Shown piece by piece: positions 10,539 through 45,859 of a stretch of 45,859 nt of DNA; the stretch's first letter is position 1, and every line of letters begins with the position of its first letter. The position numbers and the translations under genes were made by a program. The notes beneath the pieces were generated by a model. The model had not been told where the DNA came from. It worked only from the letters and a program-made list of their open reading frames with translations, and searched no databases. Source of the DNA: a virus (taxonomy: Duplodnaviria > Heunggongvirae > Uroviricota > Caudoviricetes); IMG/VR virus record IMGVR_UViG_2718218168_000002; one strand, given 5' to 3'.

Positions 10539-10682
10539 ATGCGAAAAACGCAGGAAAATAAACGCGTTAATCACCGAAAAGATGTGCTACGTGACCAGTT
10601 TTATCAGGGGGTTAATCCAGCAATAGCTGTGCCACTGAGAGAAATACTTAACAGGTACAAAACTTCGGAGAAGTCAAAATGA
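10539..10682 (+). CDS. Small basic hypothetical protein upstream of the replication initiator
   Basis: 47-aa ORF MRKTQENKRVNHRKDVLRDQFYQGVNPAIAVPLREILNRYKTSEKSK with GAGG Shine-Dalgarno; its stop overlaps the next start (ATGA). Confidence 0.4.
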   Translation: MRKTQENKRVNHRKDVLRDQFYQGVNPAIAVPLREILNRYKTSEKSK

Positions 10683-11563
10683 GCATGAATCTTATGGCTA
10701 AGGCCATGAATATAAAGGTTGGCAACCCACTGAGAAAACTGGTTCTGATTAAACTTGCCGATAACGCCAATGATAATGGCGAATGCTGGCCTTCATATCA
10801 ACATGTCGCTGACCAGTGTGAGGTGAGCAGATCGACAGTAAAAAGTCACATTAGGGCACTGGAAGAGATGGGGCTTTTGAAAAGGGAATTCAGAAGAAAA
10901 GGAGAGCTTAACCAGTCAAACGTTTTTTATCTGACGCTGGATAATGCACAACAAATCCAACCAGAATCAGGTGGGGCAGGAGCTGCCCGGGGTGGGGCAG
11001 GAGCTGCCCGGGGTGGGGCAGGAGCTGCCCGGGGTGGGGCAGGAGCTGCCCGGGGTGGGGCAGGAGCTGCCCGGGGTGGGGCAGGAGCTGCCCTAGGGGG
11101 TGGGGCAGGAGCTGCCCTAGGGGGTGGGGCAGGAGCTGCCCCCAGAACCTATCACTCTTTTGAACCAGTCAATGAACCTAAAAACATTATGTTCGAACAT
11201 GTCCGAACAGAGTGTGAAAAAACTCCTGACCGTCACGAAGAAACCGACAAGGCATTCGAGGAAATATTCTGGTGTGCAGGAATGCGGAAAGCCGGGAAGA
11301 AAAACGCAGCTTCGGCATTCAGAACACAGTTCAGGGAATGGCGTAAAACTACCAGGGGTACGGCAAGCGAGTTTGCCACGATGCTGGCAGAAGACATCGC
11401 ATGCAGGAATGGTAAGCAGTTCGGATTCGACAGGTTGTTACCATCGAGCTACCTGAACGGTCAACGCTGGAACGACGAGAAGCCAGAAACTATTCAACCA
11501 CAATCCAAACCATCATCCGCAATCACCGTATCGAAAACTGGCTACGTGTTTTTCGACAGGTGA
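10679..11563 (+). CDS. Replication initiator protein (winged-helix HTH N-terminus; O-like role)
   Basis: 294-aa ORF at the lambda O position; N-terminal HTH-like segment (SYQHVADQCEVSRSTVKSHIRALEEMGLLKR); internal Gly/Ala-rich linker encoded by an iteron array. Confidence 0.55.
   Translation: MSMNLMAKAMNIKVGNPLRKLVLIKLADNANDNGECWPSYQHVADQCEVSRSTVKSHIRALEEMGLLKREFRRKGELNQSNVFYLTLDNAQQIQPESGGAGAARGGAGAARGGAGAARGGAGAARGGAGAARGGAGAALGGGAGAALGGGAGAAPRTYHSFEPVNEPKNIMFEHVRTECEKTPDRHEETDKAFEEIFWCAGMRKAGKKNAASAFRTQFREWRKTTRGTASEFATMLAEDIACRNGKQFGFDRLLPSSYLNGQRWNDEKPETIQPQSKPSSAITVSKTGYVFFDR
10970..11143 (+). repeat. Tandem 21-bp iteron array inside the initiator gene (candidate origin)
   Basis: Five exact copies of ggtggggcaggagctgcccgg, then three 24-bp variants; each unit holds inverted arms gggcag/ctgccc. 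Confidence 0.6.
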
Positions 11564-18896: not shown

Positions 18897-19027
18897 ACAA
18901 AGCATTCGAACGATATATGCGCCAGCGTTATGGCAATCGCTACGATCTGACCCGCGATACTGGCGGTTTCTACTGCCGTGAGGTTGTGAAACGAATGTTT
19001 GAAGTGTGGTGTCATTGCAAAGGATAG
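18893..19027 (+). CDS. Small hypothetical protein between rusA and Q
   Basis: 44-aa ORF MNKAFERYMRQRYGNRYDLTRDTGGFYCREVVKRMFEVWCHCKG; its ATG overlaps the rusA stop. Confidence 0.35.
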   Translation: MNKAFERYMRQRYGNRYDLTRDTGGFYCREVVKRMFEVWCHCKG

Positions 19028-19038
19028 AGGGGAAGACG

Positions 19039-19527
19039 ATGAGCATAAGAGAACTAAACCTCACCAAAGAACAGCACGATTGGCTGAATGGCTGGCTTGA
19101 ACTGTGGGGAGCATGGGTTTATTCAGGTCGTCTTGAAAAGCGCATGAGCAGCGTAATAGCGAAGTTTATGGAGAGCGTAGAGCCGGGAAGAGTTATTACA
19201 AGGCCAATGTGTAATGATGATGATGGAATGTTGATTTCTCAGGTCGTCGATTCCGTCATGTACATTGACAAGAAAGCCTTTGGCATCCTCCTCAGCTACT
19301 ACGCTCATGGATCTTCCAAGCACGCCATTGCATCTTACTATCATCGTGTCGCAAGACCTCGCAAGATGTTATGCCGGGGCGGCGGGCGCATTCAAAAACC
19401 ATCGCTCGCAACCTGTCGCCGGGAAGTTGACGAAATCCTCAATGCCTCGTTGTTTATGATTTATCCGGCTCTGGATAGTGCGTTTAAAAACCGGAAACGT
19501 GTAGAGAAAATTAAACATATAGCATAG
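19039..19527 (+). CDS. Late-gene antiterminator Q-like protein
   Basis: Internal ATG (MSIRELNLTKEQHDWLNGWLELWGAWV...) of track ORF 19006..19527; sits between rusA and the lysis cassette; motif recalled from Q-family proteins. Confidence 0.6.
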   Translation: MSIRELNLTKEQHDWLNGWLELWGAWVYSGRLEKRMSSVIAKFMESVEPGRVITRPMCNDDDGMLISQVVDSVMYIDKKAFGILLSYYAHGSSKHAIASYYHRVARPRKMLCRGGGRIQKPSLATCRREVDEILNASLFMIYPALDSAFKNRKRVEKIKHIA

Positions 19528-19533
19528 AACGTG

Positions 19534-19614
19534 TTGACATCATTGAGCAAATGAGCAACACTATTCGCATAAGCTGCCGTTAGTGGCTCTTAAGTTGCAA
19601 CGGTGGCTTTTTTT
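19534..19614 (+). promoter_or_regulatory. Candidate late promoter (pR-prime-like) and short-transcript terminator
   Basis: TTGACA at 19534-19539, 7 nt after the Q stop; 9-bp stem (gctgccgtt/aacggtggc, two G-U pairs) then TTTTTTT at 19608-19614. The -10 is weak. Confidence 0.35.
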
Positions 19615-20054
19615 GTTTGCACAACAGGTAAGAGCATTCTCCTTTATGGGGCTTGGCTTAAATGCACCGAGTGCTCTTATCGTTGTGGTGAAGCTCAATG
19701 GCGAGCTAGCAGATAGGCGACAGTGAAAATACTAGTCATGTAGCTGACCGCCGCGCGTACTGCAATCGGCAGCGCACCGATGGAAGCCGGTTCGATTCCG
19801 GCCGCCACAACCCAAACTGAGCCGTAGCCACTGGCTATCCTGAATTCATCAGTGATAGTTACGCTGCGGCCTTCTACACATGACCTCGTGAAAGCGGGTG
19901 GCAGGAGGTTGCGCTAACAACCCCCTGCCGCTTTGCCCGTGCATATCGGTCACGAACAAATCTGATTACTAAACACAGTAGCCTGGATTTGTTCTATCAG
20001 TAACCGACCATATTCCTAATTAAATAGAGCAAATCCCCTTATTGGGGGTAAGAC

Positions 20055-20378
20055 ATGAAGATGCCAGAAAAAAATGACCTGTTAGCCGCCATTCTCGCGG
20101 CAAAGGAACAAGGCATCGGGGCAATCCTTGCGTTTGCAATGGCGTACCTTCGCGGCAGATATAATGGCGGTGCGTTTACAAAAACAGTAATCGACGCAAC
20201 GATGTGCGCCATTATCGCCTGGTTCATTCGTGATCTTCTCGACCTCGCCGGACTAAGTAGCAATCTCGCTTATATAACGAGCGTGTTCATCGGCTACATC
20301 GGTACTGACTCGATTGGTTCGCTTATCAAACGCTTCGCTGCTAAAAAAGCCGGAGTAGAAGATGGTGGAAATCAATAA
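20055..20378 (+). CDS. S: Holin S (lambda type)
   Basis: 107-aa [46 protein letters not shown]..., recalled as lambda S with a dual-start MKM. Confidence 0.9.
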
Positions 20379-20838
20379 TCAACGTAAGGCGTTCCTCGAT
20401 ATGCTGGCATGGTCAGAGGGAACTGATAACGGACGGCAGAAAACCAGAAATCATGGTTATGACGTCATTGTAGGAGGAGAGCTATTCACTGATTACTCCG
20501 ATCACCCTCGCAAACTTGTCACGCTAAACCCCAAACTCAAATCAACAGCCGCCGGACGCTACCAGCTTCTTTCCCGTTGGTGGGATGCCTACCGCAAGCA
20601 GCTTGGCCTGAAAGACTTCTCTCCCAAAAGCCAGGACGCTGTGGCACTGCAGCAGATTAAGGAGCGTGGCGCTTTACCGATGATTGATCGCGGTGATATT
20701 CGTCAGGCTATTGATCGTTGCAGCAATATTTGGGCTTCATTGCCCGGCGCTGGCTACGGTCAGTATGAACACAAGATCGATAGTCTGATTGCCAAATTCA
20801 AAGAAGCTGGCGGGGTGGTTAATGAAACTTCGCTATAA
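20362..20838 (+). CDS. R: Endolysin R (lytic transglycosylase, lambda type)
   Basis: 158-aa [42 protein letters not shown]..., recalled as lambda R. Confidence 0.9.
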
Positions 20839-34078: not shown

Positions 34079-36067
34079 ATGAACGCTGAAACTATTAAAG
34101 ATTTCCTCGTCTCGCTTGGCTTCAGTGTGGATGATGCAGGAGCGAAAAAGTTCGGTTCTGTCCTCGCCGGTACAACTGCAAATGTCATCAAAATGGGACT
34201 GGCCGTTGAAGGAGCTGCGCTGTCCGTGGTGGCCTTCACGGCTAAGATCGCCTCCGGCCTGGATAATCTTTACCGGGCGTCACAGCGCACCGGCGCGACA
34301 GTCCAGGGAATTCAGTCTATTGGCTATGCGGTTTCGCAGGTTGGCGGCAGCGTGGACGCGGCGCGAACCTCTCTGGAAAGCCTCTCCCGGTTTGTTCGTA
34401 ACAATCCCGGCGCGGAAGGCTTCCTGAATCGCCTGGGGGTACAGACACGGGATGCCAGCGGTAACATGCGTGACATGGCCGCTATTTTTACAGGTGTAGG
34501 CCAGAAGCTCAGCGGCATGCCGTATTACCGGGCTAACCAGTATGCGCAGATGCTAGGCATTGACGAAAATACCCTTATGGCGATGCGCCGGGGTGTGGGT
34601 GATTTCTCCGGGCAGTACAGCGCAATGGCGAAAGCTATCGGCTTCAATGCTGACGAGGCGGCCAGAAGCTCCAACAAATTCATGACCTCCCTGCGCGAGT
34701 TCGGCGCGATGGCAGGCATGGCCCGTGACAAAATCGGCTCTAATCTTGCTGGTGGTCTGGCGGGTTCGCTGGACACACTGCGCCGCCACATCCTCGATAA
34801 CTTCCCGCGCATCGAGCAGACCCTGACGAAAGCCATAAAAGGCATTCTGGCGATCGGAGACATCATCGGGCGGCTGTTCTTCAGGCTAATTGAGGGAACA
34901 TCCAGCCTTATCACCTGGTGGCAATCGCTGGATAAGCAAACGCGGGAGCTCATCTCGCTGTTTGGCGCGCTGACGATTGCGCTGCGCATTCTGAACAGTA
35001 CGTTCTGGATGTCGCCGATTGGCCTCATTACCGCGCTGGCGGCGGGGATTGCCCTTCTGTGGGAGGACTATCAGACCTGGAAGGAAGGCGGCGACAGCCT
35101 GATTGACTGGGGCAAGTGGAAGCCGGAGGTCGATGCCGCGCTGAAGATGGTTCGTGACCTGAAAGGGTCTGTTAATGAACTGGCGAAAGCGCTGGCGAAA
35201 CTGCTCAATATTGACCCCAAATCATGGTCCCTGAAGTGGGATTTCAGCAACTTCATCGACCAGATGGGCGAATTCAGCAAAATGCTGAACATGATCGCCG
35301 ACCTGCTCAACGCTATCAAAGATGGCCGCTGGGCTGATGCCGTCATCATCGGCAAACAGATACTTAATCAGGGCAGCGAAAATCCGTCAGCGATGCCGAT
35401 GGTTACAGACAGCGCTAACAGTACTGCCGACTGGATTAAAGAGCACTGGGGATTCGATCCCCGCAGTGTGGGCCGGACGGTACGCGGCTGGTTTGGTGAT
35501 GATGAGCCGGAACAATATGCACAGGCTACGAAACGAGGAGAACGGAATAACAATCCGGGAAACCTTAATTTTGCTGGTCAGGCAGGGGCTTCTCTTGAAC
35601 GCCCGGGCGGGCGATTTGCCAGATTTGAAACTGCTTTTGATGGATTACGGGCTCTTGCTCGTCAGTTAATGCTGTACGCCGGACGGGGAATAAACAGTGT
35701 GGAGAAAATTATCTCTACCTGGGCACCTGCGTCTGATAATAACAACACAACTGCGTATATCAGGGCTGTATCGCAACGACTGGGAGTGGATCCCCGGGCT
35801 GCCCTGAATATGAGCGATCCGCAAACCATGTCAGCATTGATGAGCAGCATTATCCAGCATGAGAATGGAAGAAATATCTATTCTCGAGAGCTGATTAATA
35901 AGGCTGCCGTGGCGGGAATTAGTGGCAAAATGACAGAGGTTAACCAGCAAAATACTTACCACATTTACGGTGGCGGAGATCCGCACGCTGTCGGTAATGA
36001 GGTTGCACGTCGGCAACAGTCTGCAAATGCTCAGGTCATGCGAAGTAATCAGGTGAGGGTGGGTTAG
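34079..36067 (+). CDS. Tail tape measure protein
   Basis: Long ORF after the chaperone; ATG at 34079 preceded by GAGAGAGGA (track ORF uses TTG at 34058); alpha-helical, Ala/Gly-rich N-terminal half. Confidence 0.7.
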   Translation: MNAETIKDFLVSLGFSVDDAGAKKFGSVLAGTTANVIKMGLAVEGAALSVVAFTAKIASGLDNLYRASQRTGATVQGIQSIGYAVSQVGGSVDAARTSLESLSRFVRNNPGAEGFLNRLGVQTRDASGNMRDMAAIFTGVGQKLSGMPYYRANQYAQMLGIDENTLMAMRRGVGDFSGQYSAMAKAIGFNADEAARSSNKFMTSLREFGAMAGMARDKIGSNLAGGLAGSLDTLRRHILDNFPRIEQTLTKAIKGILAIGDIIGRLFFRLIEGTSSLITWWQSLDKQTRELISLFGALTIALRILNSTFWMSPIGLITALAAGIALLWEDYQTWKEGGDSLIDWGKWKPEVDAALKMVRDLKGSVNELAKALAKLLNIDPKSWSLKWDFSNFIDQMGEFSKMLNMIADLLNAIKDGRWADAVIIGKQILNQGSENPSAMPMVTDSANSTADWIKEHWGFDPRSVGRTVRGWFGDDEPEQYAQATKRGERNNNPGNLNFAGQAGASLERPGGRFARFETAFDGLRALARQLMLYAGRGINSVEKIISTWAPASDNNNTTAYIRAVSQRLGVDPRAALNMSDPQTMSALMSSIIQHENGRNIYSRELINKAAVAGISGKMTEVNQQNTYHIYGGGDPHAVGNEVARRQQSANAQVMRSNQVRVG

Positions 36068-43457: not shown

Positions 43458-44615
43458 TCACTCCACCTTTTCATCAATCCAGTCCGCCCACCACTGCATC
43501 ATTTCTCTGCGCTTATCTAGATACTGAGCATGGTTGTAAATACCGCGCACAGATCCGCCGTTGGCATGTGCCAGTTGCACCTCAATCGCGTCAGCAGGCC
43601 ATTCGTGCTCGTTCATAATCGTGCTAAATTCATGCCTGAATCCGTGACCGCTTTCCAGACCCTCATAGCCGATTTGTTTGATCACAAGTAGAACCGCGTT
43701 CTCGCAGATTGGCTTCTTCTTATCGTTGCGCCCGGCAAAAACAAACTCTGATACTGGTTTGGTGATGGAGCTTAGCGTAGTGAGAAGTTCAACCACCTGG
43801 TCTGACATCGGGACCACATGAATTTTGCGTCCCTTCATCACACTGGCGTCGATGGTGATAATCCTGTTTTCAAAATCGACGTTCTTCCATAGCATGGAAC
43901 GAAGCTCTTTCGTTCTTAGGGCTGTGTAGCGTAAAACTTTGGTCGCAATGAGCGATACGATACTTCCTGAAAATGTTGCCAGTGCTTTGTTGAATGCCGG
44001 GATCTGGTCTGCAGGAAGAAACGGGAAGTTCTTCTTGCGGTATCCCTTCATGGCGTCTGCAAGGTCAGGTGCCGGGTTGTATTTAGCCCTTCCGGTGACA
44101 ATAGCGTAACGGAAAACTTCGCCGCATCTTCTGCGGGCTTTGTTGGCTCGCTCCATTGCACCGCGATCTTCAAATCTGCGGATTACTTCCAGCAGTTGCA
44201 TCGGCTCAATATCCTGAATTTCAAGGCTGCCGATGATAGGTAAAATGTCGTCATCAAACATTTTTGCAAGTTCATTTGCATAGCCTACTGACCAGACTTG
44301 CTTCTTGTGCTCGTACCATTCCTTGTAAATGGCGCTAAAGGAATTGTTGTTAGACGAAGCCTTTTTCGCTTTTACCGGATCGATGCCAACCGAGATGTCT
44401 TTCCTAGCGGTCCATGCTTTATCCCTTGCCTCCTGCAAAGTCATAAGCGGATATTTTCCGACGGTCAGGATTTTCTCTTTACCGTCAATCTTGTAGCGAA
44501 GCTGCCATACCTTTTTCCCGGATACAGGAACATAAAGGTACAGGCCATTACCATCGAGAAGGCGGTATGGTTTTTCTTTCGGCTTTGCTGCTTCAATCTG
44601 CTTAACGGTGAGCAT
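43458..44615 (-). CDS. intS: Tyrosine integrase (P4/KplE1 IntS type)
   Basis: Start placed at MLTVKQIEAAKPKEKPYRL (track ORF extends to 44651); C-terminal catalytic region HGFRHEF...HANGGSVRGIYNHAQY; adjacent to argW. Confidence 0.85.
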   Translation of the reverse strand: MLTVKQIEAAKPKEKPYRLLDGNGLYLYVPVSGKKVWQLRYKIDGKEKILTVGKYPLMTLQEARDKAWTARKDISVGIDPVKAKKASSNNNSFSAIYKEWYEHKKQVWSVGYANELAKMFDDDILPIIGSLEIQDIEPMQLLEVIRRFEDRGAMERANKARRRCGEVFRYAIVTGRAKYNPAPDLADAMKGYRKKNFPFLPADQIPAFNKALATFSGSIVSLIATKVLRYTALRTKELRSMLWKNVDFENRIITIDASVMKGRKIHVVPMSDQVVELLTTLSSITKPVSEFVFAGRNDKKKPICENAVLLVIKQIGYEGLESGHGFRHEFSTIMNEHEWPADAIEVQLAHANGGSVRGIYNHAQYLDKRREMMQWWADWIDEKVE

Positions 44616-44775
44616 GGGTAAAAATCCGGTGGGTAAAATTATTTTATCCACTTTTTACCCGTCATGGAGTGCGGCTGTCAACGATCTGACGCGAACCATG
44701 ACGAACCGTGAATATACGGAAGGCTTGATATTCAGGGGATTTTGCGGACTGGTACGGATGGGAGCGAACTGATAA

Positions 44776-44851
44776 ATGGTGTCCCCTGCAGGAATCGAAC
44801 CTGCAATTAGCCCTTAGGAGGGGCTCGTTATATCCATTTAACTAAGAGGAC
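44776..44851 (-). tRNA. argW: tRNA-Arg (anticodon CCU)
   Basis: Minus-strand cloverleaf: acceptor GTCCTCT/AGGGGAC, D stem GTTA/TAAC, anticodon stem AGCCC/GGGCT with loop CTCCTAA, T arm GCAGG-TTCGATT-CCTGC, discriminator A, CCA. Confidence 0.9.
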
Positions 44852-44926
44852 AATGCGGCATGAGTATACCCGCTAATGGACTGCGGGGTAAGTACGCTGC
44901 CGCTCGATTGCTTAAACCCTCGCCAT

Positions 44927-45859
44927 TTATGCTGGGTTTTTATCATTTTTCTTAATGTTTTCCGCACGTTCTGCTTTTTGGCGTGCTTCTGCTTTACGCT
45001 TGTTGCTCATGTCGTTACGAATCTGTGCATGACTCATTAACGCGAAGATAAAGGTGCCGCCGCAGATGTTCCCCGCTAAAGTAGGTAGTGCGAAGGGCCA
45101 GATGAAATCGCTCCAGTGCAGCGTGCCGTTAAACACCAGATAGAGGATTTCAACAGAACCGACAACGATGTGGGTGGTGTCACCCAGTGCAATAAGCCAG
45201 GTCATCAATATAATCACCACAATCTTTGCCGCACCCGCAGCAGGAAACATCCAAACCATAGTGGCGATCAGCCAGCCGGAAATGATCGCGTTGGCAAACA
45301 TCTCGCTGGGGGTGTTCTTCATCACATCCATGCCGATTTTGACAAATGCATCGCGAGTTTCTTCATTGAAGATAGGCATATATTCAAATGCCCATGCAGC
45401 AATACCTGTCCCGAGAATATTACCCAGCAGCACGACGCCCCATAATCGCATAAGTAAGCCGACGTTGCTCATTGTCGGTTTTTGCATGACGGGTAGTACC
45501 GCAGTCACGGTGTTTTCGGTAAATAATTGCTGGCGGGCCATAATGACGATAATAAAACCAAAGGTATAACCGAGATTCTCCAGTAAGAAGCTGCCTGGCA
45601 CTCCTTCCAGTTCGACATGAAATATCCCTTTTGCCAGTAGCGAAGCGCCCATCGACAGACCCGCCGCAATGGCTGACCACAGTAGCGCCATTGCGTCGCG
45701 TTCCAGCTCTTTTTCACCATCCTGGCGGATATGCTCATGAATTGCCATCGCCCGGGAGGGGAGTCGATCTTCATCTATTTCTATTTTTTTGCCGCGCTCT
45801 TTTTCTTCGCTCTCAACTTCAATTTCGTCGCTGTGTTGATCAATTTTGTCGTTGTCCAT
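44927..45859 (-). CDS. yfdC: Formate/nitrite-transporter-family inner membrane protein YfdC
   Basis: 310-aa ORF starting exactly at the window end; multi-TM with acidic N-terminus MDNDKIDQHSDEIEVESEEKERG; recalled as the K-12 neighbour of argW. Confidence 0.75.
   Translation of the reverse strand: MDNDKIDQHSDEIEVESEEKERGKKIEIDEDRLPSRAMAIHEHIRQDGEKELERDAMALLWSAIAAGLSMGASLLAKGIFHVELEGVPGSFLLENLGYTFGFIIVIMARQQLFTENTVTAVLPVMQKPTMSNVGLLMRLWGVVLLGNILGTGIAAWAFEYMPIFNEETRDAFVKIGMDVMKNTPSEMFANAIISGWLIATMVWMFPAAGAAKIVVIILMTWLIALGDTTHIVVGSVEILYLVFNGTLHWSDFIWPFALPTLAGNICGGTFIFALMSHAQIRNDMSNKRKAEARQKAERAENIKKNDKNPA

Follow-up and report, generated by a model that had tools for sequence, protein, structure and literature searches.

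The interval between the Q and holin genes

The window, i.e., the whole stretch of DNA analyzed (45,859 nucleotides, IMG/VR record IMGVR_UViG_2718218168_000002), is a lambdoid prophage in which a gap of 527 bases, with no convincing open reading frame (ORF), separates a Q-type late antiterminator gene from a holin gene. These genes and the features found between them are the following:

19006–19527, + strand: Q-type late antiterminator gene (Pfam Phage_antitermQ, 86.7 bits), upstream neighbor of the tRNA-like element
19571–19617, + strand: probable late-promoter-proximal terminator, analogue of lambda tR', with a strong hairpin and then a U run; paired in the minimum free energy (MFE) structure of 19565–19830 and aligning with lambda tR'
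19620–19687, + strand: H module, a hairpin (cacaac-a-ggtaagagca ... tgctcttatc-gttgtg) with variable interior, fold z = −4.0
19682–19811, + strand: complete tRNA-like element (TLE), a five-way junction of 130 nt (covariance model, covariation, RNAalifold, and single-sequence fold)
19806–20054, + strand: constant right flank of the slot, 95.6% identical to lambda 44936–45185 and reaching the holin start
20055–20378, + strand: holin gene of the lambda S family (Pfam Phage_holin_3_1, 103.7 bits), downstream neighbor of the TLE

The terminator-like hairpin is homologous to a stretch annotated as "terminator" in the HK75 record, and a consensus promoter/terminator scan of 19450–20100 called nothing, this hairpin included. 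The TTGACA at 19534–19539 is considered a late-promoter candidate only. A stem GUUUG/CAAAC that closes around both the H module and the TLE in the MFE structure of the window was dismissed as probably fortuitous because lambda does not have it.

A sequence-only reading of this region had described, at 19765–19810, an anticodon arm, a 4-nt variable loop, a T arm, and an acceptor 3' strand, and had taken them for the 3' half of a tRNA with neither a D arm nor an acceptor 5' strand upstream. All four components are indeed present there, while the two supposedly missing ones lie at 19682–19690 and 19692–19707, so that the element has both of its halves. The acceptor 5' strand and the D arm are found ~80 nt upstream of the 3' half, with a 55-nt extra arm in between. 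The components are detailed below, with reference to A2, an alignment of 24 diverse TLE copies in which pairs were counted for the named structure:

19682–19690, + strand: acceptor 5' strand gttgtggtg, pairing with 19803–19811 over 9 bp, one of them G-U
19684–19690, + strand: invariant 7-bp acceptor core tgtggtg (opposite strand c(a/g)ccaca), from the alignment
19692–19707, + strand: D arm agctc-aatggc-gagct with conserved G18 and G19; columns 19–23/31–35 of A2 100% paired, stem almost invariant
19709–19763, + strand: long arm, in which a conserved internal loop separates a short stem gcag/ctgc from a distal hairpin of ~8–10 bp (A2 helices 4 and 5)
19731–19736, + strand: six-base palindrome ACTAGT within the long-arm apical loop, self-complementary in 24 of 24 A2 sequences
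19765–19781, + strand: 5/7/5 hairpin atcgg-cagcgca-ccgat, stem invariant in A2
19782–19785, + strand: linker ggaa, read directly from the sequence
19786–19802, + strand: T arm gccgg-ttcgatt-ccggc; columns 115–119/127–131 of A2 100% paired, two pairs with double changes
19803–19811, + strand: acceptor 3' strand cgccacaac, followed by cca at 19812–19814

The five helices are the acceptor stem, the D arm, the long arm, the 5/7/5 hairpin, and the T arm. Folded alone, the 130 nt adopt the five-way junction at −49.7 kcal/mol (z = −2.6), a value equaled by 1 of 200 shuffles. The internal loop of the long arm (ATA on its 5' side, GCGCGTA on its 3' side) is nearly invariant, and variation in the loop of the 5/7/5 hairpin is confined to its first three positions, with the remaining CGCA never changing. 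The ends behave differently: the outer two acceptor pairs depend on the site occupied, late-leader copies having GTTGTG/CACAAC and N-leader copies (see below) GGTGTG/CACACC, and the 3' tail reads CCCA in the window, ACCA in many copies (type B among them), and otherwise elsewhere, a CCA-like tail being absent in the Skate and L015 types. A CCA tail is thus not conserved across the aligned copies of the family.

Conservation, covariation, and the palindromic loop

BLAST comparisons delimit the block 19670–19811 as a discrete unit whose flanks are unalignable. The TLE is 95–100% identical in HK75, vB_EcoP-611R6, and the Salmonella phages seszw, Skate, and Akira, with identity values of 81% for ST1UNAM, 79% for Pantoea phage PdC23, and 73% for the P22-like BIS08P22, and its carriers are phages and prophages of E. 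coli, Salmonella, Klebsiella, Enterobacter, and Pantoea. Matches occur in 323 of 5426 complete E. coli genomes, all chromosomal and unannotated among the matches listed, as well as in at least 120 IMG/VR contigs, the aligned core being represented by 60 distinct sequences. A contig scan with one genome per species, for which a 20-base motif was used, gave 12 matches, including three true copies in Klebsiella pneumoniae, Enterobacter intestinihominis, and one MAG; this last copy is identical to the E. coli type and probably reflects contamination. At least eight of the remaining motif matches were discarded as chance hits lacking any tRNA-like context. Type-B variants (copies located upstream of N) are almost absent from the cultured-phage collection, and their context was taken from raw ORFs. 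The TLE is unannotated in RefSeq and covered by no Rfam family, and no prior description of it was found in the literature searched (tRNA-like RNAs in lambdoid leaders, phage tmRNA, the phi80 M3 RNA, and boundary sequences); a preprint on the Pas sRNA proved unrelated.

Pairing in A2 was then compared with controls. Cells of the proposed helices are paired in 90.8% of cases, versus 33–45% when partners are slid by 1–3 columns, and 20 pairs show double changes, versus 6–10 in the slid versions. None of 500 shuffles reached any of the pairing measures, a significance that is inflated because the A2 sequences are relatives; the slid-partner control retains this relatedness and still yields far lower values. 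Compensatory changes affect four of the five varying helices. The acceptor (columns 9–17/132–140, 96.8% paired) exhibits double changes in four pairs, with GC/UA/AU at the second pair and AU replacing UA at the fifth; the short stem of the long arm displays GC/CG/AU/UA pair types and its distal stem double changes in six pairs; and the T stem includes CG/UA/AU and UA/AU/CG. Because neither the D stem nor the 5/7/5 hairpin varies, covariation has no bearing on these two helices, for or against. RNAalifold recovers the same fold with no structure supplied. With R1, a covariance model built from the 24 relatives in A2, the window copy reaches 156 bits (E about 5e-38) over 19677–19819 and is the single copy detected in the window.

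Regarding the strand, both fold about equally well when the window copy is taken alone. Nonetheless, the paired columns of A2 contain 57 G-U cells versus 13 A-C cells, which indicates that it is the + strand, the strand of Q and S, that is under selection, and the canonical T loop also reads correctly on this strand. The orientation of the element matches that of Q and S here, of N in type-B copies, and of a tRNA-Ile in Skate. Indels of 1 nt in the D loop (ST1UNAM and the copy L098) and in the apical loop (Skate) indicate that the TLE is not protein-coding. The alignments show that compensatory substitution maintains the fold in phages whose hosts belong to five or more genera of enterobacteria. 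The tRNA relation proposed by the sequence-only reading is retained as descent, given the TTCGAYT T loop, the D-loop GG, and the 7-bp core acceptor, but its idea of decay does not agree with 73–100% identity across five genera and compensatory pairs.

The apical loop of the long arm deserves separate consideration. Among the 60 distinct copies its hexamer is ACTAGT (29), TCTAGA (14), TCGCGA (12), TCTGGA (3), GCTAGC (1), or ACCGGT (1). Five of these six variants are perfect palindromes, versus an expectation of 1 in 64, and TCTGGA is self-complementary through one G-U, so that self-complementarity is kept in all 60 copies. No other segment of the TLE covaries with the hexamer, the CTAG on the D-arm side and the CGCG of the internal loop being invariant. 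Since a contiguous hexamer is unable to pair with itself within one molecule, and no segment changes along with it, an intermolecular loop-loop contact is the simplest explanation. This pattern suggests that two copies may pair by a kissing loop through the hexamer to yield a homodimer. Predicted energies for the hexamer duplexes are −3.6 to −8.3 kcal/mol, placed by the analysis in the range of the reference palindromes computed in parallel (GUGCAC, −7.9 kcal/mol; GCGCGC, −10.9 kcal/mol). The six-base palindromes of the HIV-1 DIS are kissing-loop dimerization sites, and they resemble the TLE loop in being six-base self-complementary sequences, exposed on a hairpin loop, that vary while retaining self-complementarity. 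On the contrary, the palindrome of the TLE sits on a tRNA-like scaffold of a DNA phage, and its putative role in dimerization is deduced from covariation only.

Slots in phage leaders and relation to tRNA and tmRNA

The H module that precedes the TLE has a stem of 17 bp, the last 6 bases of the module overlapping the acceptor stem. It is also present in lambda, P1/JL22, FelixO1, MK54, and ST1UNAM; fold z-scores range from −4 to −6.7, and covariation in the stem is seen when lambda, P1, FelixO1, and ST1UNAM are compared (GGTAAGGGTA/TACCCTTACC, GGAAATAGTA/TGCTATTTCC, TAAAGGGTA/TACCCTTTA). In FelixO1 it lies within tRNA clusters, and in a P1-like phage after tRNA-Asn and tRNA-Thr; no Rfam family matches it. 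Alignment with lambda places the same H after tR' (CACAAC-A-GGTAAGAGCA ... TGCTCTTTCC-GTTGTG), followed by an unrelated 84-nt hairpin unit, W, closed by GTTGTGCTG/CAGCACAAC, and then by the same right flank as in the window (CCAAACTGAGCCGTAGCC...) up to S. The slot in the window hence holds, in this order, tR', H, the TLE, and the lambda right flank, with the TLE replacing W. Homology with lambda resumes at 19806, and in the CUS-3 record both flanks of the slot are labeled as boundary sequences, the right one as "bsq3; boundary sequence", which gives substance to the module exchange that the sequence-only reading had envisaged. Its remark that some lambdoid phages carry tRNA genes between Q and the lysis genes is also borne out, as P22-like and Stx phages hold tRNA genes in this leader; in phages L and Sf6, such genes follow the late promoter and precede those for lysis (PMC8022706).

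Type-B copies are found between a cI-like repressor gene and a lambda-type N gene, with boxA, boxB, the stem GCUUUGGGGUGUG...CACACC-A-CCAAAGC, and the N start as in lambda, and with the TLE replacing the interior of the stem; they are thus located between nutL and the N ribosome-binding site. The lambda N-leader hairpin, which we take to be an RNase III site modulating N translation and which was reportedly described as an RNase III site by Wilson et al. in 1997 and 2002, is therefore used by these copies, at the same place between nutL and N, to extend their acceptor stem. The interior of the lambda hairpin is, on the contrary, unrelated and not tRNA-like, and the TLE of the window is in the late leader instead. 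The ACCA of type-B copies was discounted as a tRNA 3' end because the lambda N-leader stem has the same bases without a tRNA-like interior. In Skate and ST1UNAM, the TLE forms part of a short promoter-to-terminator unit opposite to the tail-gene strand, containing only structured RNAs plus, in Skate, tRNA-Ile. Three or more types of location are accordingly available to the cassette, namely the late leader, the N-leader hairpin of lambda type, and RNA/tRNA operons running from a promoter to a terminator.

With default settings, ARAGORN misses the TLE in the window and in eight related loci, so the absence of scanner hits that the sequence-only reading would have taken against a tRNA applies to that setting alone: with relaxed score and introns allowed a call is obtained at 19683–19814, and the Rfam tRNA model RF00005 passes threshold for one relative, the PdC23 copy (37.4 bits, cut-off 29), which it matches end-to-end with a 7-bp acceptor UGUGGUG/CACCACA, a discriminator A, and standard D and T arms. 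PdC23 is the only copy to pass. In the RF00005 alignment the long arm takes the place of the anticodon arm, its loop being an insert of 45 nt, and the AUCGG hairpin is assigned to the variable region (a long variable arm according to Infernal). The TLE can also be read alternatively as a class-I tRNA with a 5/7/5 anticodon arm, a GGAA(G) variable loop of 4–5 nt, and an extra arm after position 26; R1 aligns the 5/7/5 hairpin with the anticodon arm of a phage tRNA-Arg(UCU). In the first reading the canonical arm carries a structured insert of 45–55 nt, and in the second the 7-nt loop CAGCGCA has A33 and C37, neither U33 nor a purine at 37, so that no usable anticodon loop exists in either.

The likeness to tRNA resides in a spacing of two bases ahead of the D arm, in a D stem GCUC/GAGC whose loop contains GG, and in a UUCGAYU T loop abutting the acceptor 3' strand, with a 7-bp acceptor stacked on a 5-bp T stem (general T-loop pattern UUCRANY) and with the elbow-forming bases of tRNA in the D and T arms. 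The TLE differs from tRNAs in having five helices, not four, in its loop bases, in its lack of a conserved CCA, and in being missed by default ARAGORN. The mascRNA from MALAT1 and the t-elements of plant mitochondria are tRNA-like processing signals in longer transcripts, and they share with the TLE a tRNA shape that forms part of a longer RNA and from which recruitment of RNase P and 3' processing is expected; they show, however, neither a conserved extra arm nor a palindromic loop, and processing of the TLE is a prediction.

Comparison with tmRNA is less favorable. With E values up to 10, the only Rfam hit for the window copy is a sub-threshold tmRNA match on the 3' half (20.2 bits, cut-off 47). 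The alanine identity pair G3-U70 is lacking, as the third pair of the acceptor is not G-U whichever register is chosen (the sole wobble is at the inner end of the stem). Whereas tmRNA has a stemless D region and no arm at the anticodon position, so that SmpB can be accommodated, the TLE has a D stem of 5 bp that is 100% paired and its long arm at that position, and no resume codon or tag frame is found in the window. The mycobacteriophage DS6A encodes little more than a tmRNA tRNA-like domain (TLD), and such a molecule inhibits tmRNA (PMC4131195). The TLE resembles tmRNA TLDs and this TLD-only RNA in being a phage-borne tRNA mimic with no decoding anticodon, and departs from them in having a true D stem, a closed long arm at the place taken by P2 and SmpB in tmRNA, and no attached reading frame.

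A separate observation concerns module X, a structured RNA of ~190 nt located upstream of the TLE in E. coli 55989, ST1UNAM, and others, and absent from the window. Alone, it is found in at least 120 viral contigs, including a FelixO1 tRNA cluster and phages of ~155 kb. It displays a tmRNA resume signature (AAAGAUAAAU, then GCAAACGA) and a 10-codon frame with 16 variants (ANDDVVLMAA in 33 copies, ANEEMYLAVA in 29, and ANDDLMLMAA in 20), its stop codon lies in a hairpin loop, and it has a covarying pseudoknot and no attached tRNA-like domain. ARAGORN does not call X, and its tmRNA mode, run on all fetched loci, returned only a host ssrA and one unrelated permuted tmRNA. The phage tmRNAs listed in a 2014 survey were confined to mycobacteriophages and Bacillus phage G (PMC4131195). 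A fixed association of X with the TLE was rejected, as X is upstream in only 5–6 of 126 copies and has variable downstream architectures, and a one-piece tmRNA joining the 5' half of the TLE to X was likewise discarded, with 0 matches in IMG/VR.

Regarding the relic att-like site also proposed by the sequence-only reading, the true att repeats of the prophage lie elsewhere and consist of tRNA-Arg(CCU) fragments at 1690–1709 and about 1997–2012. The intact tRNA-Arg(CCU), the sole tRNA called by default ARAGORN in the window, is at 44777–44851 and adjoins the integrase ORF. The TLE is internal, complete, and unrelated in sequence to it. Altogether, the TLE is best filed with the tRNA-like RNAs of mobile elements, being unusual among them in its added arm, its palindromic loop, and its behavior as a cassette in lambda leaders.

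Proposed function and rival explanations

The explanation we favor, with somewhat better than even confidence, is that 19682–19811 encodes a tRNA-derived structured small RNA, carried as a late-leader cassette, which would be excised, dimerize, and act as a tRNA mimic. Transcription of the TLE would take place only once Q lets RNA polymerase read through the terminator at ~19571–19617. The RNA would adopt a fold in which the tRNA elbow and the acceptor/T stack are intact, and host tRNA-maturation enzymes would then excise it as a stable species of ~130 nt: RNase P would cut on the 5' side of the acceptor stem, RNase III would act on the long flanking stems where present, and 3' trimming would complete the process. 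Excision is considered likely because elbow and acceptor/T stack are the features that RNase P and other tRNA enzymes read; these structural prerequisites are observed, as are H or N-leader stems of 15–17 bp for RNase III. Two such RNAs would join through the palindromic loop to form a homodimer, and the TLE would bind or titrate a tRNA-recognizing factor, as a mimic and not as a decoder, since there is no usable anticodon loop.

The main rival, which we regard as possible rather than probable, is a cis-acting leader element: the TLE fold and the long stems would be only processing signals for RNase P and RNase III, the excised RNA would have no role, and cutting the leader off the holin and late genes (or N in type B) would set the stability or translation of the message. 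The position of the TLE in leaders of antiterminated operons is equally expected of such an element. Consistent with it, type-B copies lie exactly inside the lambda N-leader hairpin with its basal stem retained, the TLE of the window has a 17-bp H stem before it and the holin leader after it, and the same lambda slots hold unrelated interiors, as expected if only stems matter; a precedent is given by the tRNA-like t-elements that reportedly define mRNA ends in plant mitochondria (PMC1920247). Nonetheless, (i) a cleavage signal needs no conserved 55-nt arm, invariant internal loop, or covarying palindrome, (ii) the interior of the TLE is far better conserved across genera than its flanks, and (iii) the Skate and ST1UNAM operons have no downstream protein gene to regulate. 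This last point is the one taken as decisive, in that RNA operons devoid of protein genes would favor a product acting in trans. A different trans role, in which the TLE would supply the tRNA-like part of a phage tmRNA-like system or compete with it, together with module X, or would titrate SmpB as proposed for TLD-only molecules, seems improbable. The weak tmRNA match on the 3' half, the inhibition of tmRNA by the DS6A molecule, the occurrence of X with its tmRNA-type resume region and 10-codon tag upstream of the TLE in E. coli 55989, ST1UNAM, and a few others, and the resemblance of the 5' end of X (AUAGUUUUCGGUG) to the internal loop plus distal stem of the TLE (AUAGUUUUGCGGUG) all speak for it. 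Against these stand a score of 20 bits versus a cut-off of 47, the lack of G3-U70, a full D stem and an arm where SmpB would sit, as well as the scarcity of X within 1.2 kb upstream of TLE copies (the 5–6 of 126 mentioned above, with none in the window), the high variability of the modules downstream of X, and the lack of chimeras in IMG/VR.

Readings that deny any present role to the RNA are far less credible. That the TLE is a DNA-level feature, either an att relic or a recombination boundary sequence for module exchange, appears very unlikely. It would agree with lambda homology beginning within the acceptor 3' strand, with the boundary-sequence labels of CUS-3, and with outer acceptor pairs that match the local slot. 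Microhomology at the edges accounts, however, for movement of the cassette and not for conservation of its interior, and the bases of tRNA tertiary contacts are conserved; the 57 to 13 ratio of G-U to A-C cells indicates selection on + strand RNA, and the att repeats are elsewhere. A decayed phage tRNA pseudogene with no present function, the main proposal of the sequence-only reading, is hardly tenable. Rejection by default tRNA scanning, the lack of a canonical anticodon loop (A33 and C37 in the 7-nt loop of the other arm), and the real tRNAs that the slot holds elsewhere are in line with it, but a relic would show neither compensatory changes in four helices nor conservation from E. coli to Pantoea phages while flanks diverge completely. 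In addition, conservation extends to the inserted arm, in which loop bases do not vary and the palindrome covaries, and copies are carried by 323 E. coli genomes as well as by at least 120 viral contigs.

Returning to the excised tRNA mimic favored above, a bolder extension, which we consider doubtful, would make it one self-dimerizing member of an unrecognized modular set of RNAs that manipulate the host tRNA and ribosome-rescue machinery during lytic growth. Such a set might comprise the H hairpins, the W/Y/Z units, the TLE, and the tmRNA-like tag unit, with CACAAC/GTTGTG and GGTAAGAGCA/TGCTCTTACC as shared complementary connectors. Its conceivable carriers would be lambda-like, P1-like, FelixO1-like, and other enterobacterial phages, which would hold these RNAs in leaders and tRNA clusters, and its targets might include, for example, trans-translation or tRNA-targeting defense.

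If the favored explanation is true, the lambda late leader (after tR') and the N leader would be slots for interchangeable structured-RNA cassettes, one of them a tRNA mimic, and hundreds of E. coli and Salmonella prophages would express a tRNA-shaped RNA, missed by annotation, at lysis time or from pL. The palindromic loop would predict an RNA homodimer, a simple and testable property. Module X, if functional, would extend phage-encoded components of trans-translation to enterobacterial phages. The TLE, for its part, would provide a handle on non-decoding phage tRNA-like genes, whether as defense decoys, in titration of tRNA factors, or as processing punctuation.

A tmRNA-like module and further units

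Loci related to that of the tRNA-like element carry a further structured RNA of ~190 nt, module X, which occurs in at least 120 IMG/VR contigs and is absent from the window.

Examples of module X (coordinates local to each locus)
L001 1256-1431, E. coli 55989
L128 ~1335-1500, Klebsiella phage MK54
L004 ~1030-1210, ST1UNAM
L127 ~1320-1480, FelixO1

Module X contains a resume region of tmRNA type, AAAGAUAAAU then GCAAACGA, and a tag frame of 10 codons, whose 16 variants are all AN[D/E]...[A/V]A and whose stop codon is situated in the loop of a hairpin, together with a pseudoknot that covaries. A tRNA-like domain is not attached to it, ARAGORN made no call on it, and it fell below threshold with the Rfam tmRNA models.

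Further units have the closing stem GTTGTGGTG/CACCACAAC in common and score 17-30 bits with the covariance model of the tRNA-like element. In unit Y, a loop of 9 nt holding GAUCAG caps a T-like arm, and another tRNA-like unit with this closing stem contains UAUAGG-UUCGAGU-CCUAU.

Units closed by GTTGTGGTG/CACCACAAC
L128 1558-1714
L002 ~650-790
L153 11372-11514

Small annotated proteins on one strand or the other overlap H modules (long hairpins) or the tRNA-like element, namely 'plp' of phage JL22 (L002 689-1021), 'polyubiquitin-A' (ON470589 ~19895-20390) and CPT_Skate_053/054 of Skate, all of them probably spurious calls on structured RNA.

Other features of the prophage

tRNA-Arg(CCU) and adjoining integrase-sized ORF
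1690-1709, tRNA-Arg(CCU) fragment
~1997-2012, tRNA-Arg(CCU) fragment
44777-44851, - strand, intact tRNA-Arg(CCU) gene
43458-44651, - strand, integrase-sized ORF adjoining the intact gene

The 3' end and the T-arm part of tRNA-Arg(CCU) are repeated ~43 kb away from the intact gene, and the prophage has its true att-type tRNA fragments in these two repeats. A small AlpA/Xis-like ORF lies between them, hinting at a second, remnant integrative element. Separately, a 21-nt unit (GGTGGGGCAGGAGCTGCCCGG) is present in 7-8 tandem copies at 10949-11140, within the ORF at 10679-11563; these repeats look like replication-origin iterons inside an O-like gene.

Lambda leaders and the module set

Leader hairpins and comparison loci
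lambda 35360-35520 (L259), N-leader hairpin, between nutL and N
L008 7840-8075 and L005 1400-1690, type-B/N-leader comparison loci
lambda J02459 ~44790-44945 (L258 ~390-545), late leader between tR' and S, H hairpin plus W unit
window 19620-19687, H module

In type-B copies, the tRNA-like elements sited inside a lambda-type N-leader hairpin, the extended acceptor stem is the lambda hairpin's own basal stem put to a second use, and the lambda interior is swapped out. H modules are also found within the tRNA cluster of FelixO1 and, in P1-like phages, the same ones follow tRNA-Asn and tRNA-Thr. In the lambda late leader, the W unit spans 84 nt and is closed by the stem GTTGTGCTG/CAGCACAAC; the H hairpin and W unit of lambda are members of the same connector-flanked module set.
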